A stretch of DNA of 64,000 nt from an uncultured Planctomycetia bacterium. Its GTDB lineage: Bacteria; Omnitrophota; Gorgyraeia; Tantalellales; Tantalellaceae. Positions 9,888-40,487 of this stretch are shown piece by piece. The stretch lies in contig CAYPCX010000001.1 in NCBI GenBank assembly GCA_964409365.1, forward strand, positions 312,699 through 376,698, written 5' to 3'. The position numbers were made by a program, and so were the translations under genes. Positions within the stretch are counted from its first letter, which is position 1. Every line of letters starts with the position of its first letter. The notes below the pieces were generated by a model, which was given only the letters and a program-made list of their open reading frames with translations, searched no databases and was not told where the DNA came from.

Positions 9888-9912
9888 GAGAAGTGCTTGC
9901 CTAAAATAAGGT

Positions 9913-9941
9913 TTGACAAAGTATTTGTTATTTGCTAACAT
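9913..9941 (+). promoter_or_regulatory. Candidate sigma70-type promoter of the mreBCD-mrdA-rodA operon (TTGACA-17-TAACAT; a second perfect TATAAT at about 9959)
   Basis: Hexamers read directly from the sequence 45-75 nt upstream of mreB ATG. Confidence 0.45.
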
Positions 9942-9988
9942 TTTTACGGATTTAATAATATAATCTACACCCACCAATAATAGGAAAT

Positions 9989-11047
9989 ATGCTAAACACC
10001 ATTTCGAAATATTTTGATGGCATAATCGGCATGTTCTCGACCGATATGGGCATCGACCTCGGAACCGCTTCAACCCTTGTTTACCTCAAGAACGAAGGTA
10101 TAGTTCTCTGCGAACCTTCCGTCGTTGCTATCGAGGCCGGTACGAATAACGTCCTGGCGGTGGGGGAAGAGGCAAAACGCATGCTCGGCAGGACCCCCGG
10201 CAACATAGTCGCGATAAGGCCTATGAAGGACGGCGTTATCGCGGATTTCGAGATAACCGAAAGCATGCTCAGGTATTTCATCAAGAAAGTGCACAATTCA
10301 CGCCGTCTCGTCCGGCCGAGAGTGGTGGTCGCCATACCTTCGGGTATTACCGAGGTGGAGAAACGCGCGGTCAAGGATTCCGCGCTCCACGCCGGCGCCA
10401 GGGAAGTATACATGCTCGAGGAGCCGGTAGCGGCTTCCATCGGGGTGGGGCTCCCCATCCAGGAACCCTCCGGCAACATGATAATCGACATCGGCGGCGG
10501 CACGACCGAGATGGCCGTCATATCTCTCGCGGGTGTCGTATTCTCGAAGTCTATCCGTATCGGCGGGGATGAGCTGGACGACGCTATCATCAACTATCTT
10601 AAGAGGACTTACAACCTCATGGTAGGTGAAAGGACCGCCGAGGAGATCAAGATAAGGATAGGGTCCGCTTACCCGATGGACGATGAACTGACCATGGACG
10701 TGAGGGGGCGTGATCTCGTGGCGGGCCTTCCCAAAATGATCACCGTTACCAGCGAAGAGATCAGGGAAGCCCTGTCCGAGCCGATCGCCCAGATAATCGA
10801 GGCGGTGAGGATAACCCTTGAGAGGACGCCGCCGGAACTTTCCGCGGACCTTATTGAAAAAGGGTTGATACTCGCCGGCGGAGGAGCTCTTCTCAGGGGG
10901 CTGGATAAGCTTATCGCTGAAGAGACGGGTCTGCCGGTGCACCTTGCGGACGACCCGCTTACGGCGGTCGTTCTGGGTACGGGCAAGGTGCTCAGCGAGT
11001 TAAGGTACTTAAAGAGACTGACCGTAGCCCCGAGACTTCAAAAATAA
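9989..11047 (+). CDS. mreB: Rod shape-determining protein MreB
   Basis: Actin-fold ATPase, [12 protein letters not shown] and DIGGGTTE phosphate motifs. Confidence 0.95.
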
Positions 11048-11063
11048 GTAAAGACTATTCGAT

Positions 11064-11840
11064 GTGCCTAAACTTCTTAATAGGAAAAGAACCTGGTTTT
11101 TCATATCTTTCTTTTTAGCTGTCATCTTCCTTTTTGTCATATTCCCTTCATTTTTTTCCGGCGTCAGGACCGTCACTCTCAGGACCCTTTCGGCACCCGC
11201 GAGACTTTTCGTCTCTATCCGTGAAGGTTGCGTTACCAGGCGGCGGCTCCGGAGCGAGAACAGGGCGCTGAGAAAGGATCTCGCGGACCTTTCTCTTAAG
11301 ATCGAAGGCCTCAAGGACCTCCGGGACGAGAACGAGCGCCTCAGGGAACTCCTCAACTTCAGGAAAAAGATACAATACGACGTGGTCTCGGCCGAGGTCA
11401 TCGCGAGGAACCCTAACGACTGGATCGGGTCGTTCGTCATCGACAGGGGTGCGGCCGACGGCGTAAAGAAAGATTCCGCTGTCTGCACCGCCAAGGGGCT
11501 GCTCGGGAAGGTGACGGGGGCCGATGCCGAGACAAGTTCCGTGATGATGATCATCCACCCGGGATTCAAGGCCGGGGGAATGATCAAAGGCACCGGGGTG
11601 AACGGGATAGTGGTCGGTTCCGGGAAGGGGACTCTCAGGATGCTTTATATTCCCGTCGACGCCGACGTGGGAAAGGGTGACGTCGTCGTGACGTCGGGGT
11701 TCAGCAGGATATTTCCCAGAGGGATACCCATCGGCGAGGTGGTCTCTGTCGGAAGGAGCAGGACCGGTTTGTACAAATACGCGGTCATCAGGCCTTCCGC
11801 GAACCTTTTCGAACAGGAAGAGGTTCTTTGTATCAAGTGA
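11064..11840 (+). CDS. mreC: Rod shape-determining protein MreC
   Basis: Single N-terminal TM, coiled coil (ENRALRKDLADL...LRELLNF), beta-rich C-term; position between mreB and mreD. Confidence 0.8.
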   Translation: MPKLLNRKRTWFFISFFLAVIFLFVIFPSFFSGVRTVTLRTLSAPARLFVSIREGCVTRRRLRSENRALRKDLADLSLKIEGLKDLRDENERLRELLNFRKKIQYDVVSAEVIARNPNDWIGSFVIDRGAADGVKKDSAVCTAKGLLGKVTGADAETSSVMMIIHPGFKAGGMIKGTGVNGIVVGSGKGTLRMLYIPVDADVGKGDVVVTSGFSRIFPRGIPIGEVVSVGRSRTGLYKYAVIRPSANLFEQEEVLCIK

Positions 11841-12225
11841 ATTTCAGGTCTCAGGTTGCAGGTCTCAGGAAACAGATGACAGAGGACAGAAGGACAGAGG
11901 ACAGAGGACAGAAGGACAGAGGACAGAGGACAGAGGACAGAAGGACGTAGATGCCAGGAGGATGTTAGATGTTGGATGTTAGATCTTTGATCGCAAAGAG
12001 CTAAGCGCGTAGAGCAAAGAATCACAGTTTTACGCTGTACGCTATGCCCTTTGCGCTATGCTTTTTTCACTTGTCACTTTATCCTTTATCCTTGTCACTT
12101 GTCACTGTTTACTGGCTACTGGTTACTGGTTACTGTTTACTGGTTACTGGTTACTGTTTACTGGCTACTGGTTACTGGTTACTGGCTACTGGTTACTGGT
12201 TACTCTGACACTATGACACTTACGC
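11841..12225. repeat. Composite heptanucleotide tandem-repeat mosaic (longest copy: about 10x GGACAGA, GATGTTA module, about 12x TACTGGT)
   Basis: Same module order as 6400-6612 and 15745-15975; ends with the TGACAC motif immediately before mreD. Confidence 0.85.
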
Positions 12226-12699
12226 ATGAAACAACGTATCGCACTATATGCATTGCTGGTGGTCTGTGTCCTGGTCCAGGTGATATTGATGCGGGATGCC
12301 GCCTGGTTCCCGGACATCATACTTATCATGGTCGTTTTTACCGGTATCTTCAGGGGCGGGACCGAGGCCCTTGCTTTGGGCATCGTGGCAGGTCTTTTGA
12401 GAGGGAGTTTTTCGGTGGGGACGCTCCCTCTGGATATTCTTATTTTTCCGCTGGTGGGCGTGATGTCCGCGGCCCTTGCTAGGATGTTCTACCGGCAGAA
12501 CCCGGCTATCCAGGTGTTGATCACCTCCGCCGCTCTCGCTGCTGTCGTGGCGGCGCACACGCTTTATCTTAACGTGGTAAGCGGCAACGACGTCGCGCTG
12601 TCATTCGTTTTCATGAACAGCCTGTGGACGCTGGCGCTGACGGTCATCCTCTCGCCGCTTATTTTCCTCATGCTTCGTCCTTTGTGGTCGGAGAACTAA
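12226..12699 (+). CDS. mreD: Rod shape-determining protein MreD
   Basis: 157 aa polytopic membrane protein directly between mreC and mrdA. Confidence 0.65.
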   Translation: MKQRIALYALLVVCVLVQVILMRDAAWFPDIILIMVVFTGIFRGGTEALALGIVAGLLRGSFSVGTLPLDILIFPLVGVMSAALARMFYRQNPAIQVLITSAALAAVVAAHTLYLNVVSGNDVALSFVFMNSLWTLALTVILSPLIFLMLRPLWSEN

Positions 12700-12702
12700 A
12701 TA

Positions 12703-14421
12703 ATGAGAACTAAAACATTAAGTTTTATATTCGTATTTTGCCTGGGGTTCCTACTTTTGGGGCTCTTTTTCACTCAGGTGATCCGGCACGAACGATACAG
12801 GGTCATGTCCGAGGAGAACAGGCTGAAGATAATCCCTCTTATGGCCCCGAGAGGTAGCATATACGACAGAAACGGCAAAGCCCTGGTGAAAGACGTCCTG
12901 AGTTTCGACGTCGCGGTCATCTATAGCCGCATAAAGGATAAGACCGCGCTGGCAGACATGCTGAGCTCCGAGCTGGAAATACCCGCGGAGACGATAACCC
13001 GGGAGATCGGGAAAGCCCGGAGGCAGCCGTTCACCCCTACCGTCGTAGCCTCCAATGTCGGTATAGGAAAGGCCATACAACTGGAAGAGTTGAGCGCGGA
13101 TTATCCCGGACTTCACCTGGATGTTTCGGCGAGACGGGAATATCTGCGCGGGGAGACCGCTTCGAACGTCCTTGGTTATCTCGGGATGATAAACAGGTCC
13201 GAGTTCGACAGGCTCAAGCATTACGGGTACAGTATAAGGGATCTTGTCGGCAGGGCGGGCCTCGAGAGAACGTACGATAATTATCTCAGAGGGCGCCACG
13301 GCGGAAAACAGGTCGAGGTGGACCATCGCGGACGCGAGATGACGACGCTGGGATTGAAAGAGCCAAGCTCCGGCAGGGACGTCAGACTTACGCTTGACCT
13401 TGAGTTGCAGGAATATTGTGACGGCCTTCTCAAGAACAAGAAGGGCGCTATTCTTGCCATGGATCCGGATACCGGCGCGATGATAGCCATGTCCAGCGCC
13501 CCGGGTTATGACCCCGGTGTTTTTGTGGACAGGGCCAGAAGCGTCGAAACGGTAGAGCTTCTGAATGATAATGAATATCCTCTAGTGAACAGGGCGATAA
13601 CGGGTGTGTATCCGCCCGGTTCGGTGTTCAAAGTGGTAGTAGCTTCCGGGGCGGTCGAGACCGCGAAGGCGGGAGAACATACGACCTTTGCCTGTTCCGG
13701 CGTCTTCACTCTCGGCAGGGCGACGTTCCACTGCTGGAGGGAAGGGGGGCACGGTCTCCTGGCCCTCAAGGACGCGATCAAGAATTCATGCAACGTTTAT
13801 TTCTTCCAGCTCGGGCTCCTGCTGGGCGCGGACGGCATCGCGGAGTTCGCCAGGAGGTTCGGTTTCGGAAGTCATACCGGCATCGACCTTCCGGGAGAGG
13901 CTCCCGGCACTGTACCCGACCCTGAATGGAAGGAGGAACGTTTCAATGACAAGTGGTATAAGGGGGATACCGTCAACTATTCCATCGGACAGGGGTATAT
14001 GCTGTGCACCCCTATCCAGGTAGCGAGGATGATGGCCGTTTTCGCGAACGACGGATTTATAGTAAGGCCGTACATAGTGAACAGGATAGGGAGCCTCGAT
14101 ACGGTAAGCGGTGAAAAGATCGAAGTGGATATCTCAGGTGATACGCTGAAGACCGTAAAGGAAGGCATGTGGAGGGTCGTGAACTCTCCCAGGGGCACGG
14201 GGATGAAAGCCAGGCTTCGCAACGTAGAGGTCGCCGGGAAGACCGGCACGGCGCAGACATCCCGGGGAAAGAACCACGGGTGGTTCGCGGGGTTCGCTCC
14301 TTACGACGATCCGAAGCTCGTTGTCGTCATTTTTGACGAATACGGCGGGAAAGGCGGATACTACGCCGCGCAGACGGCGGGGAAGGTGTTCAAAAAAGCC
14401 GATGAACTGGGACTATTGTAG
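12703..14421 (+). CDS. mrdA: Penicillin-binding protein 2 (peptidoglycan D,D-transpeptidase)
   Basis: N-terminal TM, PBP dimerisation domain, SxxK (GSVFKVV), SxN (NSCN) and KTG(T) motifs. Confidence 0.9.
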   Translation: MRTKTLSFIFVFCLGFLLLGLFFTQVIRHERYRVMSEENRLKIIPLMAPRGSIYDRNGKALVKDVLSFDVAVIYSRIKDKTALADMLSSELEIPAETITREIGKARRQPFTPTVVASNVGIGKAIQLEELSADYPGLHLDVSARREYLRGETASNVLGYLGMINRSEFDRLKHYGYSIRDLVGRAGLERTYDNYLRGRHGGKQVEVDHRGREMTTLGLKEPSSGRDVRLTLDLELQEYCDGLLKNKKGAILAMDPDTGAMIAMSSAPGYDPGVFVDRARSVETVELLNDNEYPLVNRAITGVYPPGSVFKVVVASGAVETAKAGEHTTFACSGVFTLGRATFHCWREGGHGLLALKDAIKNSCNVYFFQLGLLLGADGIAEFARRFGFGSHTGIDLPGEAPGTVPDPEWKEERFNDKWYKGDTVNYSIGQGYMLCTPIQVARMMAVFANDGFIVRPYIVNRIGSLDTVSGEKIEVDISGDTLKTVKEGMWRVVNSPRGTGMKARLRNVEVAGKTGTAQTSRGKNHGWFAGFAPYDDPKLVVVIFDEYGGKGGYYAAQTAGKVFKKADELGLL

Positions 14422-14424
14422 AGA

Positions 14425-14640
14425 GTCACAAGTTGCAAGTCACAAGTATCAAGTTACAAGTTGCAAGTCACAAGTCACAAGTTACAAGTTACAAGTCACA
14501 AGTCACAAGTTACAAGTCACAAGGAAAAAGGATAAAGTGTCGAATAACCCGTTTCCCGTAACCGGTTTCCAGATAGCTCTGGTCACTGGTTACTCAATAC
14601 TCGACACTCAATACTCAATACTTAATTTGCGAATGGGAGT
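14425..14640. repeat. Heptanucleotide tandem-repeat mosaic, CACAAGT/TACAAGT array (about 13 units) with inverted versions of the CTTTATC and TACTGGT modules
   Basis: Direct reading; reverse-complement relationship to modules in the 6400 and 11841 copies. Confidence 0.8.
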
Positions 14641-14643
14641 TAC

Positions 14644-15741
14644 ATGTTTTTCGCAAAAAGAGGGCATATAGACAAGATATTGCTCGCGACGGTGCTTGCG
14701 ATAGGGTTGCTCGGCGTGCTTTTTGTATACAGCGCCACCTGGGACAAGAATGCCAGCGGGCCGGGGCTGAACACTATCGTCGTGAAGCAGGCCATGGCGG
14801 TCATGATCGGCCTGGTGGTCCTTCTTTTCATAGCGAACATGGATTACAGGCGGATGAGGGACCTGGGGTATTTCCTTTACGTGGTCAACCTCGCGGCCCT
14901 TGTGTTCCTTCTCATTTTCGGCGGTGAACGTTACGGCGCGAGGCGGTGGATAAACCTGGGATTCTTTTCCCTGCAGCCGTCCGAGTTCGTGAAACTTACC
15001 ATGATCCTCGCGCTGGGGGCTTTTCTCAGCGACAGACGCGAGAAAATAGGCGGTTTCGGCAATTTCTTTTTCGCGCTGGTCCTTGCCATGCCGGCCTTTG
15101 CGCTGATATTCCTGCAGCCGGACCTGGGGACAGCGCTCGTCCTTCTACCGATACTTTTTTCCATACTGTTCGTCTGCGGCGAAAGGAAAAGATATCTGGC
15201 CGCCTGTGTGGGGCTGGGGGTAGCCGCTCTTCCGGTCCTTTGGAGCCTGCTGAAGGATTACCAGAAGACGCGGCTCATGGTCTTCATAAATCCCAATCTG
15301 GACCCGCTGGGCGCGGGGTACACGATAATACAGTCCAAGATAGCCATCGGTTCCGGCGGATGGTTCGGCAAGGGATGGCTCAACGGGACGCAGAGTTATC
15401 TGAAATTCCTCCCCGAGCGGCACTCCGATTTCATCTTTTCAGTGGTGGGGGAAGAATGGGGCTTTGCAGGGGCGCTTGTCATCATAGCGCTCTATGTGCT
15501 TTTTATAAGCAGGGGCCTGAGGATAGCCGCGAACACGGATGATGTCTTCGGAAAGGCGGTGGCTGTCGGGGTCGTGACGTTGCTGGCTTTCCAGGTATTC
15601 GTCAACATCTCCATGACGATAGGTTTTATGCCTGTCGTAGGCTTGCCCCTTCCCGCGATCAGTTACGGGGGATCTTCCACCCTGGCGACATTCATCGGAG
15701 CGGGGCTTTTGCTCAGCATCGGGCGGAAAGCGGCCAGATAA
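14644..15741 (+). CDS. rodA: Rod shape-determining protein RodA (SEDS family peptidoglycan polymerase)
   Basis: FtsW/RodA/SpoVE family: 10 TM, conserved GGW.GKG and PE.H.DFIF blocks. Confidence 0.9.
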   Translation: MFFAKRGHIDKILLATVLAIGLLGVLFVYSATWDKNASGPGLNTIVVKQAMAVMIGLVVLLFIANMDYRRMRDLGYFLYVVNLAALVFLLIFGGERYGARRWINLGFFSLQPSEFVKLTMILALGAFLSDRREKIGGFGNFFFALVLAMPAFALIFLQPDLGTALVLLPILFSILFVCGERKRYLAACVGLGVAALPVLWSLLKDYQKTRLMVFINPNLDPLGAGYTIIQSKIAIGSGGWFGKGWLNGTQSYLKFLPERHSDFIFSVVGEEWGFAGALVIIALYVLFISRGLRIAANTDDVFGKAVAVGVVTLLAFQVFVNISMTIGFMPVVGLPLPAISYGGSSTLATFIGAGLLLSIGRKAAR

Positions 15742-15744
15742 ACA

Positions 15745-15975
<231 letters not shown>

Positions 15976-15978
15976 GTT

Positions 15979-17718
15979 ATGGATGACTTGAGGCAAATTC
16001 TCAGCAAAGTGCAGAAACCCGGGCGCTATATCGGCGGCGAAACGAACTGTGTCCGCAAAAAATTCACACAGGACAGGATTTCCGTCGCTCTGGCATATCC
16101 CGATACGTACGAGGTCGGGATGAGCTACCTGGGACTGCGGATACTGTACCATCTTCTTAACGAGCGAGACGACATAGTCTGCGAGCGCGTGTTCGCCCCC
16201 TGGCCGGACATGGAACAAGAGCTCAGGGGGAACGGCCGTAGACTTTTCAGTCTTGAGTCGAAGACGGATATCCACAGGTTCGATATCGTGGGGTTCTCTC
16301 TTTCCTACGAGCTGACCTACACTAACGTTCTCAATATGCTGGACCTTTCGGGGATAACCGTAGAGGCCGCCAAAAGAGGGGATGACGAACCTCTCGTCAT
16401 AGCCGGAGGCGCGTGCTGCTGTAACCCGGAACCCATGAGCGCCTTCATAGACGCTTTTTTGATAGGCGACGCGGAAGAAGCGCTTCCGGGGTTTATTGAC
16501 GCCTACCGTGAGCTGAAACGCGGCTCGGTCGACAGAAAAAGCACGTTGAAACGCCTCGCACGTCTGGGCGGCGTATATGTTCCGCGTCTTTATTCCGCGC
16601 GGTATGAGGGTGATAAGTTCCTCGGCCTCGCGCCCGAAGATGACGGGGTGCCGCCGGTGGTCAAAAAGAATTCCGTGGCCGATCTTGAAAAGGCGTATTA
16701 TCCGGTCAAGCAGATCGTGCCGCTGGTCAAGATAGTCCACGACAGGATAGCGGTAGAGATAATGAGGGGGTGCCCCAACGGGTGCCGGTTCTGCCAGGCG
16801 GGCAACATAAATAAACCGGTGAGGCTCAGGAGCCCGGGACGTATCCGCGAGATATGCCGCGAGACTTACGCCGCCACGGGATACGAACGTATCGCGCTTC
16901 TCTCGCTTTCCAGCGTCAATTACCCGTATCTTCCGGAACTGGTCGAAGGGCTGAACGCGGACCTCGGGGACAAGGGAGTAGGGGTCTCCATACCGTCACT
17001 GCGCGTGGACGAAGCGTTCTACGCCCTGCCGGGGATATTGTCCGCTGTAAGGAAAGCGGGCCTTACTTTCGCCCCGGAGGCCGCGGGTGAGGGAATGAGA
17101 AGGTCCATAGGCAAGGACATAAAGACCGAAGTGCTCGAGAGGTCCGTCCGGCTCGCTTACGGCCACGGGTGGAGGAGGGTCAAACTGTATTTTATGGTAG
17201 GGTTTCCGGGGGACATGGATGAAGAGGCGAAAAAAATACTGGTCCTGTCAAGGGATATATCCCGCCTGAAAAGGGAAGTGTCGGGCGGCGCGGCCGAAGT
17301 GAAAGTGAGCGTCAATTCGTTCGTTCCCAAAGCGCATACCCCGTTCCAGTGGCTTGGCATGAGGCCGGCGGAGGGACTTTTGCGCGCGAGGAACATACTG
17401 CGTTCGGGTTCCACGAAGAAGGTCACGGTCGATTTTCATGATGTGGACAGGTCGATGCTTGAAGCCTGCCTGGCTAAGGGTGACCGCGCTCTCGCGGGCG
17501 TGATATACGCGGCCTGGAAGAAAGGGGCCAAGATGGACGGCTGGCAGGACCTTTTCGATCTTGCCGCGTGGGAAGGTTCTTTCCGGGAAAAAGGCCTTGA
17601 TATCCGGTCTTACGCTTTGAAAGCGTCCGCCCTCGACGACGTATTGCCGTGGTCGCACATAAAGGCCGGCATGGACGAAAAAAACTTGAAGGAAGAGTTT
17701 ATAAATAGCGAGTTGTAA
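15979..17718 (+). CDS. B12-binding-domain radical SAM protein, TIGR03960-like
   Basis: N-terminal QKPGRYIGGE hallmark, CxxxCxxC (CPNGCRFC) radical-SAM cluster; start placed at MDDLRQ downstream of the repeat. Confidence 0.7.
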   Translation: MDDLRQILSKVQKPGRYIGGETNCVRKKFTQDRISVALAYPDTYEVGMSYLGLRILYHLLNERDDIVCERVFAPWPDMEQELRGNGRRLFSLESKTDIHRFDIVGFSLSYELTYTNVLNMLDLSGITVEAAKRGDDEPLVIAGGACCCNPEPMSAFIDAFLIGDAEEALPGFIDAYRELKRGSVDRKSTLKRLARLGGVYVPRLYSARYEGDKFLGLAPEDDGVPPVVKKNSVADLEKAYYPVKQIVPLVKIVHDRIAVEIMRGCPNGCRFCQAGNINKPVRLRSPGRIREICRETYAATGYERIALLSLSSVNYPYLPELVEGLNADLGDKGVGVSIPSLRVDEAFYALPGILSAVRKAGLTFAPEAAGEGMRRSIGKDIKTEVLERSVRLAYGHGWRRVKLYFMVGFPGDMDEEAKKILVLSRDISRLKREVSGGAAEVKVSVNSFVPKAHTPFQWLGMRPAEGLLRARNILRSGSTKKVTVDFHDVDRSMLEACLAKGDRALAGVIYAAWKKGAKMDGWQDLFDLAAWEGSFREKGLDIRSYALKASALDDVLPWSHIKAGMDEKNLKEEFINSEL

Positions 17719-17770
17719 TCTTAAAACCTGAGACCTGAGACCTGAGACCTGGAACCTGTGGCCTGATTTT
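17719..17770. repeat. CCTGAGA heptamer tandem repeat (about 5 units)
   Basis: cttaaaacctgagacctgagacctgagacctggaacctgtggcctga; the same motif recurs at 32980-33012. Confidence 0.8.
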
Positions 17771-17859: not shown

Positions 17860-19269
17860 ATGGGTGTCATTCAATCCCTTTCCGTGGGCCGCAAAAGCTT
17901 GAAGTATAAGATAATGATAGCTTTTTCGCTGATGTCCATCATCCCGCTTCTGGTAGTCGTCTATTTTGTGACCAATTACGTCTTCCCTTACACTAAGAAC
18001 ATGACGCAGGTCAGCATCATCGTGCTGTTCACGCTGTGGATATCCTGGCTGGGATATCTCTTGATAAGACAGATAATCAACCCGGTGATAGACCTCGCCT
18101 TCGAGACCAAGATCATAGCCGAAGGAAAATACGGCTCGAAAGTGGCGCTTTCCACCGAGGACGAGCTGGGGGATATAGCGGAAGCCGTTAACGCGATGAC
18201 CGGGAAGATCCGATGCTATATAGGCGAGCTCCAGGATTACAGCAAAAAGACGGCGGCCCTGAACGTGCGCATACACAAGAAGGTGATCACGCTCACCAAC
18301 CTTATGCGGCTCGGTGACCTCATAAGCACCGGCACGGGGTTCGATGAGGTGATCAGTTTCGCGGCGGAGAAGATAGCAGAGGAGGTGGAGCAGGGTTTCT
18401 GCGCTATCTTCGTGAAGGAGAAGACCGGCGGTTTCGCCCTGAAGTCCTTCGCCAACAATACCGGAAAGGAATTTTCGAGCGCGCACCTCGAATCCACTGT
18501 CATATCCCTTGAGAGGATACTCATGCGGGACGAACACGTCATGGTGGATTCGCGTCCGCTGTCAAAGCCCTGGCAAAAACAGCTCCGGGAAAAGATGGGG
18601 CACGTCAACGCGCTCTTCTTCGGCATGAAGTCCACCAACAAGATGGTCGGGGCCATGGTGATGGGTAATTTCTCGGAAGATATGGAGTTCGAGGACGAAG
18701 AGATCGGTGTGGTCAGGGCTTTCGAGCGCGAACTGGTCCTCGGTTTCCAGAGCAGCCAGGTGTTCGAGAGGATCAAGAGCCTGGAGGTCGTGGACAGCCT
18801 TACGGGTCTCTATACCCGCGTGTACCTTGAGGACCGCCTCGAAGACGAGATCAACAGGGCCATATTCTACCAGAGGCCGTGCTCGCTGATACTTATCAAG
18901 GTCGACGATTTTGAGAAATATTCGGGCCACTACGGCGTGCCCAAGGCCAAGCACGTCCTGAGGCAGCTGGCGCAGCTTCTCGGCGGGGTCATGTCGCCGG
19001 TCGGGAAGGTCGCCCGTTTTGAGTACGACGAGTTCGCCATGCTGCTTCCCGAAAAGAACAAGCGCGAAACGATAGAAGTGGGCGAAGATATCCGCAAGCG
19101 TATCGAGGCGATGGAGCTTTCCAGCGATCCCTATGACAAGATAACGGTGAGCATCGGCGTGGGGGAGAACCCCATAGACGGGACTAACGCGAAAGAGATA
19201 ATAGCCAGGGCCTATTACAACATGGAAAAGGCCAAAAGCCTGGGAGCGAACAGGGTCGTAGGGGAATAG
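17860..19269 (+). CDS. Membrane-anchored HAMP-GAF-GGDEF-like protein with a degenerate active site (EYDEF instead of GG[DE]EF)
   Basis: N-terminal TM helices, HAMP-like segment, GAF-like region, C-terminal GGDEF fold (DSLTGLYTR...RFEYDEF...SIGV) lacking GG and lacking an RxxD I-site. Confidence 0.7.
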   Translation: MGVIQSLSVGRKSLKYKIMIAFSLMSIIPLLVVVYFVTNYVFPYTKNMTQVSIIVLFTLWISWLGYLLIRQIINPVIDLAFETKIIAEGKYGSKVALSTEDELGDIAEAVNAMTGKIRCYIGELQDYSKKTAALNVRIHKKVITLTNLMRLGDLISTGTGFDEVISFAAEKIAEEVEQGFCAIFVKEKTGGFALKSFANNTGKEFSSAHLESTVISLERILMRDEHVMVDSRPLSKPWQKQLREKMGHVNALFFGMKSTNKMVGAMVMGNFSEDMEFEDEEIGVVRAFERELVLGFQSSQVFERIKSLEVVDSLTGLYTRVYLEDRLEDEINRAIFYQRPCSLILIKVDDFEKYSGHYGVPKAKHVLRQLAQLLGGVMSPVGKVARFEYDEFAMLLPEKNKRETIEVGEDIRKRIEAMELSSDPYDKITVSIGVGENPIDGTNAKEIIARAYYNMEKAKSLGANRVVGE

Positions 19270-19292
19270 ATAAGAACGGACAAGGTAATAAA

Positions 19293-20360
19293 ATGGATGC
19301 GAAGATAAAGAAAATACTGGTCGACATGCCCCAAAAATGCGCGTCCGATCTTCACATAAGCGCGGATTCGCCTATCCATTACAGGATAAACAACGATCTG
19401 GTGGCGGTGGACGAGCAGGTGCTCACACCCGATGAGGCCAGGAAGGTCATATACAGCCTTATGACCGATCATCAGGTGCGGAAGTTCGAGGAAGAAAAAG
19501 AGCTGGACTTTTCCTTTTCCATCGCCGGGGTGGGCCGGTACAGGGCTAACGCTTTCATTCAACGGAACAGTCTCGGTTGTTCCATCAGGATGATACCGCT
19601 CAGGATCATGAGCATCAAGGAATGCGGCCTTCCCGTAGACATAGTTAAAGGTTTCTGTAACGCCAATAAAGGACTGGTGCTTGTAACCGGCGCTACCGGC
19701 AGCGGGAAATCCACCACGCTCGCCGCGATGGTGGAGGAGATAAACCAGACCCGGAAATGCCATATCGTGACCGTGGAAGACCCCATCGAATTCATCCACG
19801 ATAATAAGCAAGCCATCGTCGACCAGAGACAGGTGTTCGAGGACACGAATTCTTTCAACAACGCGCTCAGGCACGTGCTGAGACAGGATCCCGACGTCAT
19901 ACTTATAGGCGAGCTGCGCGACCTTGACAGCATACGGGAGGCCCTGGTCATAGCCGATACCGGCCATCTTGTGCTGGGAACGCTTCATACCTCGGACAGC
20001 ATACAGACCATAAACAGGCTGGTGGACATATTCCCGCCCTACCAGCAGAACCAGATAAGGTTCCAGCTTTCTTTCATCCTGCTGGGTATCGTAGCGCAGC
20101 AGCTCATACCCCGCAAGGATAAGTCCGGCATGGTGCTCGCCACCGAGGTCTTGGTATCCACCCCGGCCATAAGGAGCATGATCAGGGAGAGCAAGGAGCA
20201 CCAGATATATTCCATACTGCAGACGTCCCAGAAGTACGGCATGCGCACGATGAACCAGTCGCTGGCCGATCTTTACATGCAGGGAAAGATAAGCTATGAG
20301 CATGCTATATCGCGGTCTTCGAACACGGAAGAGCTGGAAAAACTTATAGAGAAGGGATGA
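19293..20360 (+). CDS. pilT: Type IV pilus retraction ATPase PilT
   Basis: 355 aa, Walker A GATGSGKSTTLAAM, PilT-type Asp/His boxes, AIRSMIRE motif. Confidence 0.9.
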   Translation: MDAKIKKILVDMPQKCASDLHISADSPIHYRINNDLVAVDEQVLTPDEARKVIYSLMTDHQVRKFEEEKELDFSFSIAGVGRYRANAFIQRNSLGCSIRMIPLRIMSIKECGLPVDIVKGFCNANKGLVLVTGATGSGKSTTLAAMVEEINQTRKCHIVTVEDPIEFIHDNKQAIVDQRQVFEDTNSFNNALRHVLRQDPDVILIGELRDLDSIREALVIADTGHLVLGTLHTSDSIQTINRLVDIFPPYQQNQIRFQLSFILLGIVAQQLIPRKDKSGMVLATEVLVSTPAIRSMIRESKEHQIYSILQTSQKYGMRTMNQSLADLYMQGKISYEHAISRSSNTEELEKLIEKG

Positions 20361-20366
20361 TGAAGA

Positions 20367-20813
20367 GTGGGTCCTGAAAAACGGATAGCGAAAAAACTAG
20401 GCGAGATCCTCGTAAACAACGCGGCTATCACCGAGGAACAGCTGCAGCGGGCGCTGGATTTCCAGAGGAGGGAAGGGGGCCTTCTGGGGGAGATCCTGGT
20501 CAAGCTCGGATATATAGGCGAGCGGGAGATAGTCCAGGCGCTGACCACCCAGTACGGGTTCCCGTTCGTCCTGCTGGAAAGCTTTGACTTCAACCAGGAA
20601 GCGGGGAAGCTGGTACCCGAGAACGTGGCGAGGCAGTACAGCCTGGTCCCGCTCGATATCATAGGGGAGCTCTTGACCGTGGCCATGTCAAACCCCCTCA
20701 ACGAAGCGGCCATCGACGACCTCGAAATGATAACAAAAAAAAAGGTGCAGGTCTTTATCAGCACTTTTACGTCCATACACGAAGGTATCAACAGGCTTTA
20801 TCAAAAGAAGTAA
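20367..20813 (+). CDS. Standalone GspE/PilB N-terminal (MshEN-type) domain protein, putative c-di-GMP receptor
   Basis: 148 aa; two tandem matches to the MshEN c-di-GMP-binding motif (KLGEILVNNAAITEEQLQRALDFQ and LLGEILVKLGYIGEREIVQALTTQ). Confidence 0.6.
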   Translation: MGPEKRIAKKLGEILVNNAAITEEQLQRALDFQRREGGLLGEILVKLGYIGEREIVQALTTQYGFPFVLLESFDFNQEAGKLVPENVARQYSLVPLDIIGELLTVAMSNPLNEAAIDDLEMITKKKVQVFISTFTSIHEGINRLYQKK

Positions 20814-20821
20814 TTTAAAAT

Positions 20822-22537
20822 ATGGCCCGGTCACTGACTGAAAAGATTTATGACCTGCTTATCGAGAAAAAGCTTGTTTCCGAAGAGGACCTCAAAAAGG
20901 CGCGTGATGTCTACACGAAAAAAGGAGGCAGCCTCAGCGATATACTGGTCAAGATGAACGTGGTCTCCAAGGACGACCTCTTGACCACGCTCAGCGAAGG
21001 TCTGGGCTTCCCGCCGGTAAACCTTTCGAGGGTCAAAATATCCGACGAGACCCTCAAGCTGATACCCAGAAGGATCGCCATGCTGTACCGCATACTTCCG
21101 ATCTCGCGCATCGGTGAGATGCTTACCGTCGCGATGGTGGACCCCCTTAATGTACTGGCCCTGGACGACGTCAAAGCGATCACGAAACTGGATATAAGCC
21201 CCGTCATCGCCGCGGAGGACGATATGGAAGAGGCGATAACCAGGTATTACGAACGGTCCGCCGACGAGCAGATCAGCGAGATCGTGGACGAGGCGGAAGG
21301 CGCGCGCATGGAAATGGTCGCGGAGGGAACGATGGATTTTTCCTCGGGAGAACTCTTGCGCGTGACCGAGGAAGCTCCCGTGGTGAAGCTTACCAACGTT
21401 ATCCTGAGCCGGGGGGTGAAGGAGAGGGCCAGCGATATACTGATCGAGCCCATGGAGACCAGTTCCCGGGTCAGGTACCGGATAGACGGTATATTGTCCG
21501 AGCAATATGCCCCTCCAAGGAAGCTCCATCATGCTATCGTCTCGCGTATAAAGGTAATGTCCGATCTTGACATAGCCGAAAGGCGGCTTCCCCAGGACGG
21601 GCGTTTCAGGATCAAGGTAGAGGACCGGAAGGTGGACTTCAGGGTCTCCGTGATACCTTCGAGCATGGGGGAAAAGGTCGCGCTCAGGATCCTCGATAAA
21701 CAGCAGGCGATGATAGACCTTGACAAGCTCGGGTTTACCGAGCGTGACAAAGAGAGGATCCGCAACTCCAGCAAAAGGCCTCACGGGATGATATTGATGT
21801 GCGGCCCGACGGGCTGCGGCAAGACCACCACGCTGTATTCGATATTGCAGTACGTGGACGATCCGGAAAAGAATCTCGTGACGGTCGAGGACCCCGTGGA
21901 GTACGAGCTCAAAGGGATCAACCAGGTAGCCATAAACGAGGATATTGGCCTGACGTTCGCGGGCTGCCTCAGGTCGATATTACGGCAGGACCCCGATGTA
22001 ATAATGGTCGGCGAGATACGTGACTTCGAGACGGTCGATATAGCGATAAAGTCCGCGTTGACCGGGCACCTGGTGCTGAGCACGCTCCACACGAATACCG
22101 CGAGCGGGTCCATAGTCAGGCTGGTCAACATGGGCGTGGAACCCTTCCTTATAGCGGCTTCGATAGAGCTAATAGGCGCGCAGAGGCTGGTCCGGAGGCT
22201 CTGCCCGGAATGCAAAGAGGTCTATCTTCCTTCTAAGGAGATCGCCGATAAATACGGGCTTTACAGCAGAAAAGGGGAGATCGCGAAGATATACAAACCG
22301 CAGGGCTGTAAAAGGTGCATGGGCACGGGTTACCAGGGGCGGATCGGGATAATCGAGTGCATGAAACTGACCCAGGGGATAAAAGAGCTCATATTCGCCC
22401 GTGCCGAGGAACGCGATATAGAAAAAAAAGCCAGGGAAGAAGGCATGACCACGTTAAGGGAGAACGGCATCGAGGACGTTCTGGCAGGCCTTACCTCTCT
22501 TGAAGAAGTGCTGCGCGTTACGGTGGAAGGCAGATGA
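20822..22537 (+). CDS. pilB: Type IV pilus / T2SS assembly ATPase, GspE/PilB family (paralog 1)
   Basis: Two N-terminal T2SE_N domains, Walker A CGPTGCGKTTTLYS, tetracysteine CPEC...CKRC. Confidence 0.9.
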   Translation: MARSLTEKIYDLLIEKKLVSEEDLKKARDVYTKKGGSLSDILVKMNVVSKDDLLTTLSEGLGFPPVNLSRVKISDETLKLIPRRIAMLYRILPISRIGEMLTVAMVDPLNVLALDDVKAITKLDISPVIAAEDDMEEAITRYYERSADEQISEIVDEAEGARMEMVAEGTMDFSSGELLRVTEEAPVVKLTNVILSRGVKERASDILIEPMETSSRVRYRIDGILSEQYAPPRKLHHAIVSRIKVMSDLDIAERRLPQDGRFRIKVEDRKVDFRVSVIPSSMGEKVALRILDKQQAMIDLDKLGFTERDKERIRNSSKRPHGMILMCGPTGCGKTTTLYSILQYVDDPEKNLVTVEDPVEYELKGINQVAINEDIGLTFAGCLRSILRQDPDVIMVGEIRDFETVDIAIKSALTGHLVLSTLHTNTASGSIVRLVNMGVEPFLIAASIELIGAQRLVRRLCPECKEVYLPSKEIADKYGLYSRKGEIAKIYKPQGCKRCMGTGYQGRIGIIECMKLTQGIKELIFARAEERDIEKKAREEGMTTLRENGIEDVLAGLTSLEEVLRVTVEGR

Positions 22538-24252
22538 CGAAAAAGACCATAAGGGACAAGATAATTGACGCCATTCTCGAGCGCAAGCTCGTTGACGGGG
22601 ACCGCCTGAAGGTCATCCTGGACGAAGGCAGGAAGGACAGGGAGAGCAACGTCATAAGGAAACTCATGGACAGCGACATGATATCCGACAGGGACCTTCT
22701 GATAGTCCTTAGCCAGGAGCTGAACATCCCGCCCATAGACATGACGAGAGTAGCGCTTGACCCGAAGATGATGGAACTCTTACCCGAGAAACTTGTCAGG
22801 CGGCATAATGTCGTCCCGCTGTCGCGAATAGGGGACCACCTGACGGTGATCGTCTCCGACCCGACCGACGTATTCACTATAGATGACATAAAGACCGTTA
22901 CGGGTTGCGGCGTGGAACTGGCTATCTCGACCCGCAGGAGCCTGCAGGAGGCCATACAGAGTTATTATTCCGGCGAGGAAATGGAGGACATAACCAGCAT
23001 CGTCGAGGAAGGGGAGGAAGAAGAAGCCGGGTCCGTAGAGATACTGGGGAAAGAAGAGGGTTTCGACATATCGGAGGTTACGAAGGAAAGCAAGGCGGCG
23101 CCCATCGTGAAAATGGTGGACCTCATAATAAGCGAGGCCATCAAGAAAAGGGCGAGCGATATACATATAGAGCCGATGGAGAGGTCGCTGCGCATCAGGT
23201 ACCGTATCGACGGCGCGCTCCACGACGTCTTCGACCTGCCTAAAAAGAACCAGAACGCGCTGCTTGCCAGGCTCAAGATAATGTCCAACCTCGATATTAC
23301 CGAGACAAGGCTGCCCCAGGACGGCAGGTTCAGGATAAAGATGGAAGGCAGGGAGATAGATTTCAGGGTATCCTGCCTGCCCATAACGAGCGGCAACAAG
23401 ATAGTCCTCAGGGCCCTGGACAGGAGCAACCTGTCGGTGGGCCTGGATACGCTGGGTTTTCTGCCGGGGCCACTGGACGATTTCAAAACGGCGCTTTCCA
23501 AGCCGTTCGGTATAATACTCGTGACCGGTCCGACCGGGAGCGGAAAATCCACGACCCTTTATTCCGTGCTCACGGAACTTAACGTCCCCGAGAGGAATAT
23601 AATAACCGTCGAGGACCCGGTGGAATACCAGGTGGCCGGTATAACCCAGATAGCCGCGAAGCCGGAGATCGGACTGGATTTCGCGAACGGCCTGCGCGCG
23701 ATCCTGAGACAGAGCCCCGACGTGATAATGGTCGGCGAGATAAGGGATTTCGAAACGGCCGATATCGCCATCAAGGCGTCGCTTACGGGGCAGATGGTGC
23801 TCAGCACGCTGCATACCAACGACGCGGTGGGCGCGATCACGCGCCTTGAGAACATGGGCATAGAACCTTTTCTGGTAGCGTCCAGCCTGCTCATGGCGTG
23901 CGCCCAGAGGCTGATGAGGAAGATCTGCCCGTACTGCAGGAACGAGGCCACCCTGCCGAAAGAGGTCATAAAGGACATCAGGGCGAAATTCCCGGAAGCG
24001 CGCGGCGTGGAAAAGTTCTTTGAAGGCAGGGGGTGTTCGAGGTGCAACAATACGGGGTACCTCGGCCGGATGGGTACATTGGAGACGGTTCTCGTAGATG
24101 ATACGTTGAGGGAGATGATTAACAAGAAGACCTCCGAGCAGGATATAAAGGAGTATCTGAACTCGAAAGGGGTAAGGACGCTCAGGGAGAACGCGATGAT
24201 AAAGTTCATCAAGGGGGATACAACCCTTGAAGAGGTATTAAGGGTCACCTGA
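22534..24252 (+). CDS. Type IV pilus / T2SS assembly ATPase, GspE/PilB family (paralog 2)
   Basis: Walker A TGPTGSGKSTTLYS, tetracysteine CPYC...CSRC; start ATGA overlaps the stop of paralog 1. Confidence 0.9.
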   Translation: MTKKTIRDKIIDAILERKLVDGDRLKVILDEGRKDRESNVIRKLMDSDMISDRDLLIVLSQELNIPPIDMTRVALDPKMMELLPEKLVRRHNVVPLSRIGDHLTVIVSDPTDVFTIDDIKTVTGCGVELAISTRRSLQEAIQSYYSGEEMEDITSIVEEGEEEEAGSVEILGKEEGFDISEVTKESKAAPIVKMVDLIISEAIKKRASDIHIEPMERSLRIRYRIDGALHDVFDLPKKNQNALLARLKIMSNLDITETRLPQDGRFRIKMEGREIDFRVSCLPITSGNKIVLRALDRSNLSVGLDTLGFLPGPLDDFKTALSKPFGIILVTGPTGSGKSTTLYSVLTELNVPERNIITVEDPVEYQVAGITQIAAKPEIGLDFANGLRAILRQSPDVIMVGEIRDFETADIAIKASLTGQMVLSTLHTNDAVGAITRLENMGIEPFLVASSLLMACAQRLMRKICPYCRNEATLPKEVIKDIRAKFPEARGVEKFFEGRGCSRCNNTGYLGRMGTLETVLVDDTLREMINKKTSEQDIKEYLNSKGVRTLRENAMIKFIKGDTTLEEVLRVT

Positions 24253-24259
24253 TAACGAT

Positions 24260-25480
24260 ATGGCAAAGTTCAACTATACGGTAAAGGACAGGGAAGGCAG
24301 GACCATAAAGGGAAGCCTCGTGGCGCCGGACAAAAAGCAGGCGGTCGACGCCCTCAGGAACAGCAACTACTTTGTCCTCAAGCTCGAACAGGTAGCCGAG
24401 AGAGGGGCCTTGCTCTCGTCTTTCAAGCTCCCGGGCGGCGGGAAGATCAACCTGGACGAACTTGTCGTGTTCTCCCGCCAGATGGCCACGATGATAGGCT
24501 CCGGCATCACCGTTGTCAATTCCCTTGACATCCTGGCCGAACAGACGACCAACGAAAAGTTCAAGGCCACACTGAACGAGATACGGAACGCGGTGAACAC
24601 GGGGGCGAGCCTGTCCGACGCCATGATGAAACACTCGGCCGTGTTCTCCCCGCTTTTCGTCAACATGGTGAAAGCGGGGGAGTCCAGCGGCACGCTCGAC
24701 GTCATTCTTGACAGGGTGGCATCGTACATGGAAAAGACCAACGCTCTCCAGAAAAAAATAAAATCAGCGCTTGTATACCCCGCCATAGTGTCTTTGATGG
24801 CTATCGGCATATCCCTGGTGATGATACTCAAGGTCATTCCGGTATTCAAGGATATGTACAAGGGGTTCGGCGCGGCGTTACCGGCGCCGACGCAGTTCCT
24901 TATAGACGTCAGCGATTTCATACGCGGCAATTTCCTGATATTTACAGGAATAGTCGTCGTTGTTGCCTTTATCTTCAGGTGGTACCTGAACTCGGAAAAA
25001 GGTAAACTGAAAGTGGACGGCATCAAGCTCAAACTTCCTATCTTCGGGCCTCTCTTAAAAAAGGTAGCCATAAGCAAGTTTACCAGGACGCTCAGCACGC
25101 TGGTAAAAAGCGGTGTTCCCATATTGGCCGCGCTTGAGATAGTGGCCAAGACATCCGGCAACCTTGTCGTGGAAAGTTCGGTCGACAGGGTAAAGGACAG
25201 GGTAAGGGAGGGGGAGAACATAGCGGCGCCTCTTGAAAAGAGCGGCATTTTCCCGCCGATGGTCACCCGTATGGTGGCTGTGGGAGAGAAGAGCGGACAG
25301 CTGGAGAAAATGCTGACCAAGATCTCCGATTTTTTCGACGAACAGGTCGATTCCACCGTCAACGCTTTGACAAGCCTGATAGAACCGCTGATAATAGCTT
25401 TTCTGGGGCTGATCATAGGCGGTATAGTGCTTTGTATGTTCCTGCCGATATTCAAGATATCCTCGATCGTCCAATTCTGA
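24260..25480 (+). CDS. pilC: Type IV pilus inner-membrane platform protein PilC (GspF family)
   Basis: Two T2SSF repeats, 3 TM, 406 aa. Confidence 0.9.
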   Translation: MAKFNYTVKDREGRTIKGSLVAPDKKQAVDALRNSNYFVLKLEQVAERGALLSSFKLPGGGKINLDELVVFSRQMATMIGSGITVVNSLDILAEQTTNEKFKATLNEIRNAVNTGASLSDAMMKHSAVFSPLFVNMVKAGESSGTLDVILDRVASYMEKTNALQKKIKSALVYPAIVSLMAIGISLVMILKVIPVFKDMYKGFGAALPAPTQFLIDVSDFIRGNFLIFTGIVVVVAFIFRWYLNSEKGKLKVDGIKLKLPIFGPLLKKVAISKFTRTLSTLVKSGVPILAALEIVAKTSGNLVVESSVDRVKDRVREGENIAAPLEKSGIFPPMVTRMVAVGEKSGQLEKMLTKISDFFDEQVDSTVNALTSLIEPLIIAFLGLIIGGIVLCMFLPIFKISSIVQF

Positions 25481-25656
25481 AATCCATTCGAAGATCGCTG
25501 TAAGACGTTAAGGATCATAATAGTGTGAAATGGAAATTAAAGACTTTTACAAAGCTGAGCAAGAATTTGCATTTACTGGTCCTCAAATGTATACTTGAAC
25601 TAGAGGATATTGTTGAAGTGTATCCTCAATACGCTCTTTGAAAGGAGGTGAGAACG

Positions 25657-26001
25657 ATGAAGATGCGCAAATTTCTTGGCAAAGGTGGCTTCACGCTTGT
25701 TGAAATCATGATAGTTGTCGCAATTATAGGTCTATTAGCGGCAGTAGCCATCCCGAACTTTGTACGCGCGCGCGAAAGAGCCCAGACGAATGCCTGTATC
25801 GCCAACCTTAAACAGGTTGACGGTGCGAAGACGTTGTGGGCCCTTGACACAGGGGCGACTTCCGGGGACGCATGTGTAATGTCCAACCTGGTGACGTCTT
25901 ATATCAAGTCGACACCGAGTTGTCCGGCAGGAGGCACGTACACGGTAGGCAACATAGGGACCGAACCGGCATGTACGGTTTCGGGACACGTGCTGCCGTA
26001 A
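25657..26001 (+). CDS. Type IV pilin (prepilin with class III leader; candidate major pilin)
   Basis: MKMRKFLGKGG|FTLVEIM with G-1, F+1, E+5; hydrophobic alpha1 helix; 4 Cys in C-terminal globular part; strong SD AGGAGG 8 nt upstream. Confidence 0.8.
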   Translation: MKMRKFLGKGGFTLVEIMIVVAIIGLLAAVAIPNFVRARERAQTNACIANLKQVDGAKTLWALDTGATSGDACVMSNLVTSYIKSTPSCPAGGTYTVGNIGTEPACTVSGHVLP

Positions 26002-37871: not shown

Positions 37872-37960
37872 TCCAGGTTTCAGGTCTCAGGAGTATGGAG
37901 AAAACATGTTTTTCTCAAAGGCCCGAAACCCGACACCAGAAACCTGACACCTGGACTTAC
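37865..37960. repeat. ~90-nt hairpin-plus-heptamer element, family 3, copy 2 (contains the perfect palindrome AAAACATGTTTT)
   Basis: ccaggtttcaggtctcaggagtatggagaaaacatgtttttctcaaaggcccgaaacccgacaccagaaacctgacacctgg. Confidence 0.75.
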
Positions 37961-37972
37961 GGAAAAGAAGGT

Positions 37973-39127: not shown

Positions 39128-39159
39128 GCCAGGTGTCAGGGGTGAAAGGGGGCGGAGCG

Positions 39160-40326: not shown

Positions 40327-40357
40327 TGATGCTTGAGACGTTTTTAGAGTGATAACA

Positions 40358-40470
40358 GAAAAGGAAAGGGTATCCCGTGCTCAAAAAGTAACCAGTTTCC
40401 AGTAACCAGAAAAAAATAATCTGGTAACGGGTTACGGGCAACTGGTTACTACGTTAGGTCTCAGATGTCA
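40358..40470. repeat. Partial copy of the ~95-nt hairpin element (5' arm only) fused to a CCAGTAACC/GGTTACTGG inverted heptamer patch
   Basis: aaaggaaagggtatcccgtgctcaaaaagtaaccagtttccagtaaccag...ggtaacgggttacgggcaactggttact. Confidence 0.6.
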
Positions 40471-40487
40471 GGTTAAAGGAAGGGGAT

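Follow-up and report, generated by a model that had tools for sequence, protein, structure and literature searches.

How a receptor domain for cyclic diguanosine monophosphate (c-di-GMP) comes to stand as a gene of its own between the motor genes of a type IV pilus is the question raised by a 148-residue open reading frame (ORF) on contig CAYPCX010000001.1, from an uncultured bacterium placed by GTDB in the Omnitrophota; the window referred to throughout is the whole 64,000-nucleotide stretch of that contig that was analysed. MshEN is one of two or three widespread c-di-GMP receptor domains and, to our knowledge, acts in cis in the pilus and secretion ATPases studied to date. The free-standing MshEN protein is read here, from comparative sequence evidence and with a probability of about 0.55, as a putative trans-acting subunit through which the extension motor of the Omnitrophota type IVa pilus senses c-di-GMP. 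An initial annotation, made from the letters of the window, had described a standalone MshEN gene wedged between pilT and pilB, and the ORF was indeed found there (20367–20813, forward strand), 6 nt past the pilT stop (20360) and 8 nt ahead of the pilB1 start (20822), its GTG being the earliest available start downstream of an in-frame TGA at 20361–20363.

The product corresponds exactly to one complete MshEN domain, in which a four-helix c-di-GMP subdomain precedes a T2SSE_N1 subdomain. The MshEN model of Pfam (PF05157), the profile by which the initial annotation had proposed that its isolated GspE N-terminal domain be checked, matches residues 63–147 with 67.7 bits (cut-off 23.1), and NF053729 (c-di-GMP_motif) matches residues 10–62 over model positions 1–53 of 53 with 69.1 bits (cut-off 38; E = 2e-19), which bears the description out. 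MshEN was the sole match in the Pfam scan of the protein, with no PF00437, PilZ or EAL domain, and TIGR02538 aligns over profile positions 1–138 of 564 only, with 80 bits against a cut-off of 675; having no ATPase domain, the protein is therefore not a PilB. Modelling with AlphaFold2 from 62 family members (mean predicted local distance difference test score 90.3) gave four helices at the N-terminus and, after them, an alpha/beta subdomain of three strands and three or four helices. Foldseek places the model close to Thermus PilF GSPII-A (9g1w; template modelling (TM) score 0.86) and to MshE with bound c-di-GMP (5htl; TM 0.73), with further matches to the c-di-GMP complexes of PilF GSPII-B (8pdk), to Xanthomonas PilB structures (7LKM/7LKN/7LKO) and, through the N1 domain, to EpsE/GspE in complexes with GspL (2bh1 and 4pht); the C-terminal T2SSE_N1 subdomain is likely a protein-docking surface.

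Whether the ligand site is competent can be judged from its register, read from a phmmer alignment against Protein Data Bank sequences (5HTL) for Vibrio cholerae MshE and from a HMMER alignment for Thermus thermophilus PilF. The alignment to MshE is ungapped, query residue n corresponding to MshE residue n-1: in motif 1, MshE R9, L10, G11, L25, L29 and Q32 become K10, L11, G12, L26, L30 and Q33, and in motif 2, R38, L39, G40, L54, L58 and Q61 become L39, L40, G41, I55, L59 and Q62. The same query residues align with K167, L168, G169, L183, L187 and Q190 (motif 1) and L196, L197, G198, L211, L215 and Q218 (motif 2) of PilF. Two intact motifs had been claimed, with alignment of the conserved Arg, Gly and Gln positions to MshE named as the test: all of these positions are in register, both motifs are present with the canonical 5-residue linker, and the Gly and Gln residues are kept, but the motif-initial Arg is replaced in both motifs, by Lys10 and Leu39, and the motifs can be called intact only under an (R/K/L)LG consensus, position 1 departing from the strict RLG form in each.

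That wider consensus comes from the study of PilF GSPII-B (PMC11731258, Neissner et al.), whose K167/L196 pair binds c-di-GMP with a dissociation constant of 6 nM, 83-fold tighter than MshE, and whose affinity drops when K167 or L196 is changed to Arg. Read against it, the K10/L39 substitution appears informative, not damaging. The extended motif, (R/K/L)LGxx(L/V/I)(L/V/I)xxG(L/V/I)(L/V/I)xxxxLxxxLxxQ in two 24-residue copies separated by a 5-residue linker, is fitted fully by motif 2, with a conservative I55 at MshE L54, and by motif 1 save at two positions, the turn Gly (Ala19) and the hydrophobic position after it (Ala20), both substitutions being permitted by the relaxed motif of Wang et al. 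Binding in the characterised domains depends on positions kept here: the G11L variant of MshE no longer binds c-di-GMP and the G40I variant binds it 72-fold more weakly (PMC5013675 supplement), and in PilF both Q190E and Q218E are crippling (PMC11731258). Binding of c-di-GMP by the 148-residue protein is predicted with good confidence, and a very high affinity, in the nanomolar range by analogy with PilF GSPII-B, with less.

The strongest argument for a sensor is the complementary state of the site in the neighbouring ATPases, intact in the standalone protein and degenerate in PilB1 and PilB2. When motif positions were read from the aligned N-termini of all three proteins across all loci, G12, G41, Q33 and Q62 were kept together in 34 of 34 standalone copies, whereas each PilB1 and PilB2 N-terminus was without at least one of the four equivalents. 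The window copies have the signatures KIY...Y / SLS...G (PilB1) and KII...R / NVI...E (PilB2), with motif Gly and Gln replaced; across the loci, PilB1 has Y, F, C, T, S, V, I or Q at the G12 position (Gly only in loci L030 and L038) and never Gln at the Q62 position, while PilB2 has I, L, V, F and similar residues at the G12 position, mostly I, V, L or R at the G41 position (Gly once, in L031) and usually Glu at the Q62 position. The expectation that both PilB N-termini would match the motif weakly was confirmed, NF053729 scoring 36.3 bits on PilB1, under the cut-off, and finding no match on PilB2. Both nevertheless match Pfam MshEN and align with the sensor, PilB1 ungapped over 143 residues (34% identity) and PilB2 with a small gap in the linker (28%); since the fold is retained despite the substituted Gly and Gln, G12, G41, Q33 and Q62 are not needed for folding.

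This internal control bears directly on the idea that the protein is a ligand-independent accessory subunit, a structural adaptor in the PilB1/PilB2 motor or a factor in its assembly, whose motif is kept for folding. Many motif positions do form the hydrophobic core of the four-helix bundle (PMC5013675), Thermus GSPII-A shares the fold but does not bind c-di-GMP (PMC11731258), and no cyclase was seen in the 64-kb window. Set against these points are the PilB N-domains, which fold with the four residues substituted while the standalone protein keeps them throughout, an NF053729 score for the sensor almost twice the cut-off, and HD-GYP, REC and GGDEF-type genes within the operon. Motif conservation through folding alone is ruled out by the PilB comparison, and an accessory role of this kind is considered improbable; the invariance of G12, G41, Q33 and Q62 in the standalone protein appears best explained by selection for ligand binding.

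The two ATPase genes form a tandem pair (20822–24252, forward strand) that is present in every locus examined; their products are 45% identical, their stop and start codons overlap, and both encode a Walker A and a tetracysteine motif. The pair suggests a hetero-oligomeric or dual-function extension motor.

The family to which the standalone protein belongs was delimited by two homologue searches. The first, over 5.8 billion proteins, gave 941 matches at E < 1e-5; the best 120, which were examined, are ~145–153 residues long (a few with longer called starts) and 59–99% identical, and the named sources among them are metagenome-assembled genomes (MAGs) of Candidatus Omnitrophota. The second, an exhaustive HMMER search over 1.84 billion cluster representatives, added further standalone-length members down to ~34–40% identity, the named ones again from Omnitrophota. 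When each GTDB species was scanned through a single genome, 31 close loci were returned, most of them named Omnitrophota and 8 labelled 'uncultured Planctomycetia' (binchicken and SRP co-assembly bins). Beyond the Omnitrophota, the named short representatives with a standalone MshEN comprised only a partial Wallbacteria fragment and one unclassified 'bacterium' copy.

Counted over 119 sequences, the site residues are close to invariant in motif 1 (K10 in 113, L11, G12 and L26 each in 118, L30 in 115 and Q33 in 119) and in motif 2 (L39 in 117; G41, I55 and Q62 in 119 each), as are E36, G37 and G38 of the linker. The C-terminal subdomain is likewise strongly conserved, including the segments PENVARQY, LTVAMSNPLN and KKKVQVFIST, which points to a conserved protein partner.

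These data leave a negligible chance that the ORF is a remnant without function, left by truncation of a pilB or by partial duplication of a pilB 5' end. Database labels are what would speak for it, relatives being called 'hypothetical protein' or 'PilB' (in full, 'type IV pilus assembly protein PilB', at the Joint Genome Institute (JGI)) and, once at NCBI, 'GspE, partial'. A truncated or pseudogenised pilB is ruled out by the sharp domain boundary, the lack of any ATPase remnant in the 8 nt before pilB1, more than 100 orthologues of equal length and a mean column identity of 75% across them, and the conservation data therefore exclude a pseudogene. A recent duplicate of the pilB1 or pilB2 5' end is ruled out as well, the identity to the adjacent N-termini being only 34% and 28% against ~40%, as read from the alignment, to Geobacter PilB. 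The gene is real and under selection.

Two variants of the family and one further MshEN protein with another arrangement were recorded. The unclassified copy (P0232; L046, 6001–6465) is a 154-residue MshEN protein with a degenerate motif, encoded between a Rex-like regulator gene and ndk with no pilus context. A 215-residue protein from an Omnitrophota MAG (P0136) has an extra MshEN_N bundle before its MshEN domain and is still encoded upstream of pilB-pilB-pilC. In a 454-residue protein from a JGI metagenome (P0196), named there 'chromosomal replication initiator protein DnaA', MshEN is fused to a DnaA-type AAA+ module; its motif 1 looks intact and its motif 2 begins LCG, and the arrangement hints at a possible c-di-GMP input to replication initiation.

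Gene order identifies the probable partner. Synteny was compared over ~33 non-redundant loci (~12 kb per genome), in which the conserved order is degenerate GGDEF, (pilT), MshEN, pilB1, pilB2, pilC. The MshEN gene lies immediately upstream of pilB1 in 31 of the 31 loci showing both, separated from it by a median of 12 nt, and the ORFs overlap in several. Its own upstream neighbour varies, being pilT in 27 of 33 loci, the GGDEF gene in 6, a REC protein gene in L007 and rodA in L045; with a varying gene on one side and universal pilB1 adjacency on the other, the constant partner is therefore pilB1 and not pilT. Regulation in trans of both PilB and PilT had been proposed at the outset: the PilB1 part is favoured by the adjacency, by one gene fusion and by the c-di-GMP genes of the operon, but nothing specific ties the sensor to PilT.

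The c-di-GMP-related genes of the operon are of two kinds. The membrane HAMP protein encoded in the window carries EYDEF in place of GGDEF and no RxxD I-site, and the signature of this neighbour, whose gene heads the motor block, is degenerate in 31 of 31 loci (EYDEF, DNDEF, GALEF and others, both Gly residues being variously replaced); given the degenerate signature and missing I-site, it is probably not a cyclase. Degenerate GGDEF proteins often serve as scaffolds or receptors, and one of these roles is the probable one here. In L045 (GCA_053996315.1), where the standalone MshEN shares 40% identity with the window protein, a REC-like/HD-GYP protein is encoded between pilB2 and pilC (9821–10861), with a canonical HD at residue 216 and HHERYDGKGYP at residues 269–279, which on sequence grounds ties c-di-GMP turnover to the pilus operon in at least one lineage. 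Regular-expression and BLAST searches for active GGDEF, EAL, HD-GYP and PilZ domains in the 64-kb window and 45 loci (~12 kb per genome) returned only the degenerate GGDEF proteins and the L045 HD-GYP.

A c-di-GMP receptor directed elsewhere, at PilT, at the degenerate-GGDEF membrane protein or at the buffering of local c-di-GMP, would account for the upstream neighbours (pilT in 27 loci, the GGDEF gene in 6) and for the scaffold or receptor roles common among degenerate GGDEF proteins. Very high-affinity binders can, moreover, act as sinks (PMC11731258). The neighbourhood is less constant than such a target would suggest, however: pilT does not adjoin the MshEN gene in L007, L031, L032, L034–L037 and L045, and L006, L007 and L045 have no GGDEF gene, whereas adjacency to pilB1 is universal and the one known fusion is to PilB1. 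We would be surprised to find the target elsewhere than in the extension motor.

That fusion is a 765-residue MshEN-PilB1 protein (P0144) encoded on a 50-kb metagenomic contig (L008, 8001–10298; JGI 3300009514). Residues 1–150 form an MshEN domain, followed by a 45-residue low-complexity linker rich in Gly, Asn and Lys and by a full PilB1 orthologue (51% identity over 567 residues) with its own degenerate MshEN; pilB2 and then pilC lie downstream. The chain has a (MshEN)2-T2SSE architecture and points to the Omnitrophota gene pair as a split form of that architecture. A search with the first 335 residues of P0144 for a second sensor-PilB1 fusion returned only unfused Omnitrophota PilB1 proteins, and the single fusion is supportive of the link to PilB1, not decisive.

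The fusion also weighs on the main rival to a cooperating sensor, namely that the protein is a c-di-GMP-gated decoy whose N1 subdomain takes the docking site on PilM/PilC (GspL-like) used by the N1 domain of PilB, inhibiting extension or arbitrating between PilB1, PilB2 and PilT. Its N1 subdomain is canonical (positions 1–86 of 90 in the Pfam profile), sharing core motifs such as LTVAM.(N/D)PLN with the N1 of PilB1; GspE N1 domains bind GspL, as in the fold matches 2bh1 and 4pht; the cluster encodes a PilM with a weak T2SSL match; and 27 of 33 loci have the gene flanked by pilT and pilB1. The PilB1 fusion and multi-MshEN ATPases such as PilF, on the other hand, favour a cis-like cooperation with the ATPase, and conserved surface residues of the sensor family itself, such as KKK124–126, are missing from PilB1. 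Competition for docking is judged unlikely, and yet the likeliest of the alternatives considered.

For a trans-acting sensor of the extension motor, the following mechanism may be proposed. The four-helix bundle would bind one c-di-GMP through both 24-residue motifs, the guanines being read by the backbone amides of G12/E13 and G41/E42 and by the side chains of Q33 and Q62, and two Leu triads together with K10 and L39 stacking on the bases. The C-terminal T2SSE_N1 subdomain would dock on the motor, most likely on PilB1 with its blind MshEN, the sensor replacing the extra N-terminal GSPII domain of multi-MshEN ATPases such as Thermus PilF. Ligand binding would then alter pilus extension, through assembly or activity of the motor or through docking on the PilM/PilC platform, and stimulation would be the more likely direction of the effect, by analogy with V. 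cholerae MshE (PMC7096442).

Several points weigh against this reading. At the ligand site, the turn Gly of motif 1 (MshE Gly18) is Ala19 in the window copy, Gly being present in most orthologues; the guanine-contacting Asp of the C-terminal subdomain (MshE D108, with an equivalent in PilF GSPII-B) is Asn109, as in 117 of 119 family members; and the position of its salt-bridge partner, PilF Arg268, is occupied by Leu111. With Asn109 and Leu111 in these places a very high affinity is therefore not assured, although the D108-type contact is dispensable in MshE (PMC5013675; PMC11731258). Only one metagenomic contig shows the fusion; the proteins most closely related to it are unfused, and there is an insertion of 4 residues in its motif 2. 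On the supply side, the degenerate GGDEF neighbour is an unlikely source of ligand, and an active diguanylate cyclase was found neither in the 64-kb window nor in the ~12-kb loci, which says nothing about whole genomes. As to the sign of regulation, nothing discriminates activation from inhibition.

Comparison with characterised systems shows which parts of the proposed arrangement have precedent. MshE (5HTL; Wang et al. 2016, PMC5013675) has the same two-subdomain fold, an ungapped 24 + 5 + 24-residue site and a tie to a type IV pilus extension ATPase; its MshEN is covalently joined to that ATPase, whereas the Omnitrophota MshEN is a separate 148-residue protein, and its R9, R38 and D108 are K10, L39 and N109 in the latter. 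Thermus thermophilus PilF GSPII-B (8PDK) shares the arginine-free K/L pair at the start of the motifs (K167/L196, equivalent to K10/L39), and PilF has several MshEN domains per ATPase of which some bind ligand, paralleling an intact sensor beside degenerate PilB domains. The three domains of PilF are, however, fused in one chain and the Omnitrophota module is split over genes; the Asp266/Arg268 contact is Asn/Leu in the Omnitrophota protein, and motif 2 is without the one-residue deletion of PilF. The multi-MshEN ATPases of the (MshEN)2-4-T2SSE type found in Clostridia, Deinococcus-Thermus and Nitrospirota (Wang et al. 2016, Supplementary Table 4; P0153, P0135 and P0171) have a domain order equal to the Omnitrophota gene order of MshEN then pilB1, and the L008 fusion P0144 has exactly that architecture; apart from that contig, the Omnitrophota make the first domain as a chain of its own.

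Free-standing MshEN-type receptors are already known, as PA3740 of Pseudomonas aeruginosa (listed as 'MshEN - xT2SSE_N1' in Supplementary Table 4 of Wang et al. 2016) and cce_1044, which the same authors list as (MshEN_N)2 (PMC5013675). PA3740 is, like the Omnitrophota protein, a small c-di-GMP-binding MshEN protein with no ATPase, but its N1 is highly diverged and it is found in beta- and gammaproteobacteria, whereas the Omnitrophota N1 is canonical, a distinction drawn from the published description and not from a sequence alignment; the Omnitrophota gene is, in addition, fixed inside a pilus operon beside PilBs with degenerate sites. The architecture table of Wang et al. has no plain single MshEN as an architecture of its own and none in a pilus operon (PMC5013675). 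The nearest functional analogue is the Xanthomonas FimX-PilZ-PilB relay (7LKM/7LKN/7LKO), in which the MshEN-like N-domain of PilB is likewise blind and c-di-GMP acts on it in trans, through separate proteins that dock there; the likeness lies in function alone, the sensor in Xanthomonas being the EAL domain of FimX bridged by PilZ, unlike the presumed Omnitrophota sensor, an MshEN with no PilZ or EAL.

A literature search returned no description of a standalone MshEN in a pilus operon or of MshEN in Omnitrophota, and little on c-di-GMP in that phylum. A separate, ligand-competent MshEN beside two motor ATPases that both lack the site, with the split fixed at pilB1 phylum-wide, would show MshEN to be a separable subunit, and opens the question of how c-di-GMP bound at an N-terminal domain reaches the ATPase hexamer or the PilM/PilC platform. 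It would also offer a starting point for studying how c-di-GMP controls surface behaviour in the uncultivated phylum Omnitrophota, and genes now called 'hypothetical protein' or, wrongly, 'PilB' could be annotated as c-di-GMP-binding MshEN proteins. A more elaborate arrangement can be put forward tentatively, as a possibility with the odds against it: a three-gene motor in which a detachable, arginine-free, nanomolar MshEN sensor serves PilB1 and PilB2 (perhaps a hetero-hexamer with blind sensors) and forms a local signalling complex with the dead GGDEF membrane protein, the whole born by fission of a multi-MshEN PilB. If true, this module would provide the first example of an MshEN that acts on a secretion ATPase in trans.

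The window holds a complete type IVa pilus locus (Table 1), in the order HAMP/degenerate-GGDEF gene, pilT, MshEN ORF, pilB1, pilB2, pilC, pilin, a TPR protein gene, pilM, pilN, pilO and pilQ. The block from 17860 to 25480 is tightly spaced, with successive gaps of 23, 6, 8, -4 and 7 nt.

Table 1. Features of the pilus locus and of the standalone MshEN gene, in window coordinates.
Feature	Coordinates	Strand	Evidence or remarks
Membrane HAMP protein with degenerate GGDEF	17860..19269	+	Pfam GGDEF 101 bits, HAMP 29 bits
pilT, retraction ATPase, 355 residues	19293..20360	+	TIGR01420 447.9 bits, cut-off 319
Standalone MshEN protein, putative c-di-GMP sensor	20367..20813	+	148 residues, GTG start; PF05157 and NF053729 matches
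c-di-GMP motif 1, residues 10-33, KLGEILVNNAAITEEQLQRALDFQ	20394..20465	+	Ungapped register with MshE R9-Q32 and PilF K167-Q190
Linker RREGG, 5 residues, joining motifs 1 and 2	20466..20480	+	Length equals canonical spacer (PMC5013675)
c-di-GMP motif 2, residues 39-62, LLGEILVKLGYIGEREIVQALTTQ	20481..20552	+	Register with MshE R38-Q61 and PilF L196-Q218
T2SSE_N1-type (MshEN_C) alpha/beta subdomain, residues 63-147	20553..20807	+	Pfam MshEN profile positions 1-86 of 90
pilB1, extension ATPase, 571 residues, degenerate MshEN	20822..22537	+	T2SSE 466 bits, MshEN 76 bits, TIGR02538 650 bits
pilB2, second extension-ATPase paralogue, 572 residues, degenerate MshEN	22534..24252	+	Pfam and NCBIfam; 45% identical to PilB1
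pilC, platform protein	24260..25480	+	T2SSF 215 bits, two stretches
Type IV pilin with N-methylation motif	25648..26001	+	PF07963
pilM 28222-29241, pilN 29290-29937, pilO 29937-30578, pilQ secretin 30991-32820	28222..32820	+	Pfam PilM_2, PilN, PilO, Secretin

The pilus locus sits in a housekeeping region of the chromosome with mreBCD, mrdA, rodA and tRNA synthetase genes. The pilus motor block lies directly downstream of an elongasome operon, mreB-mreC-mreD-mrdA-rodA (9989–17718 in the window; likewise in L001, L002, L004, L006 and L045), an arrangement that holds over deeply diverged lineages; in most of these a radical SAM gene of the B12-binding type stands between the elongasome operon and the motor block, L045 being without it.

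Further downstream, after RNase G, four successive large ORFs on the forward strand (35580–41654; 763, 419, 400 and 388 residues) gave no match in the Pfam scan. The window also carries at least 15 tandem heptanucleotide arrays, the 7-nt unit differing from array to array and including (ACAGAGG)10, (ACTGGTT)14, (AGTCACA)14, (CAGAAGA)8, (ACTTGTT)8.6 and (ACCTGAG)6; among their positions are 11872–11946, 12104–12204, 14424–14523, 14591–14626, 15757–15812, 15914–15973, 17726–17766, 42207–42248 and 60300–60356. They lie mostly in the spacers between ORFs, a few overlapping ORF ends and none falling within the packed pilT-to-pilC block, and resemble the short tandemly repeated repetitive (STRR) heptamer repeats of cyanobacteria.

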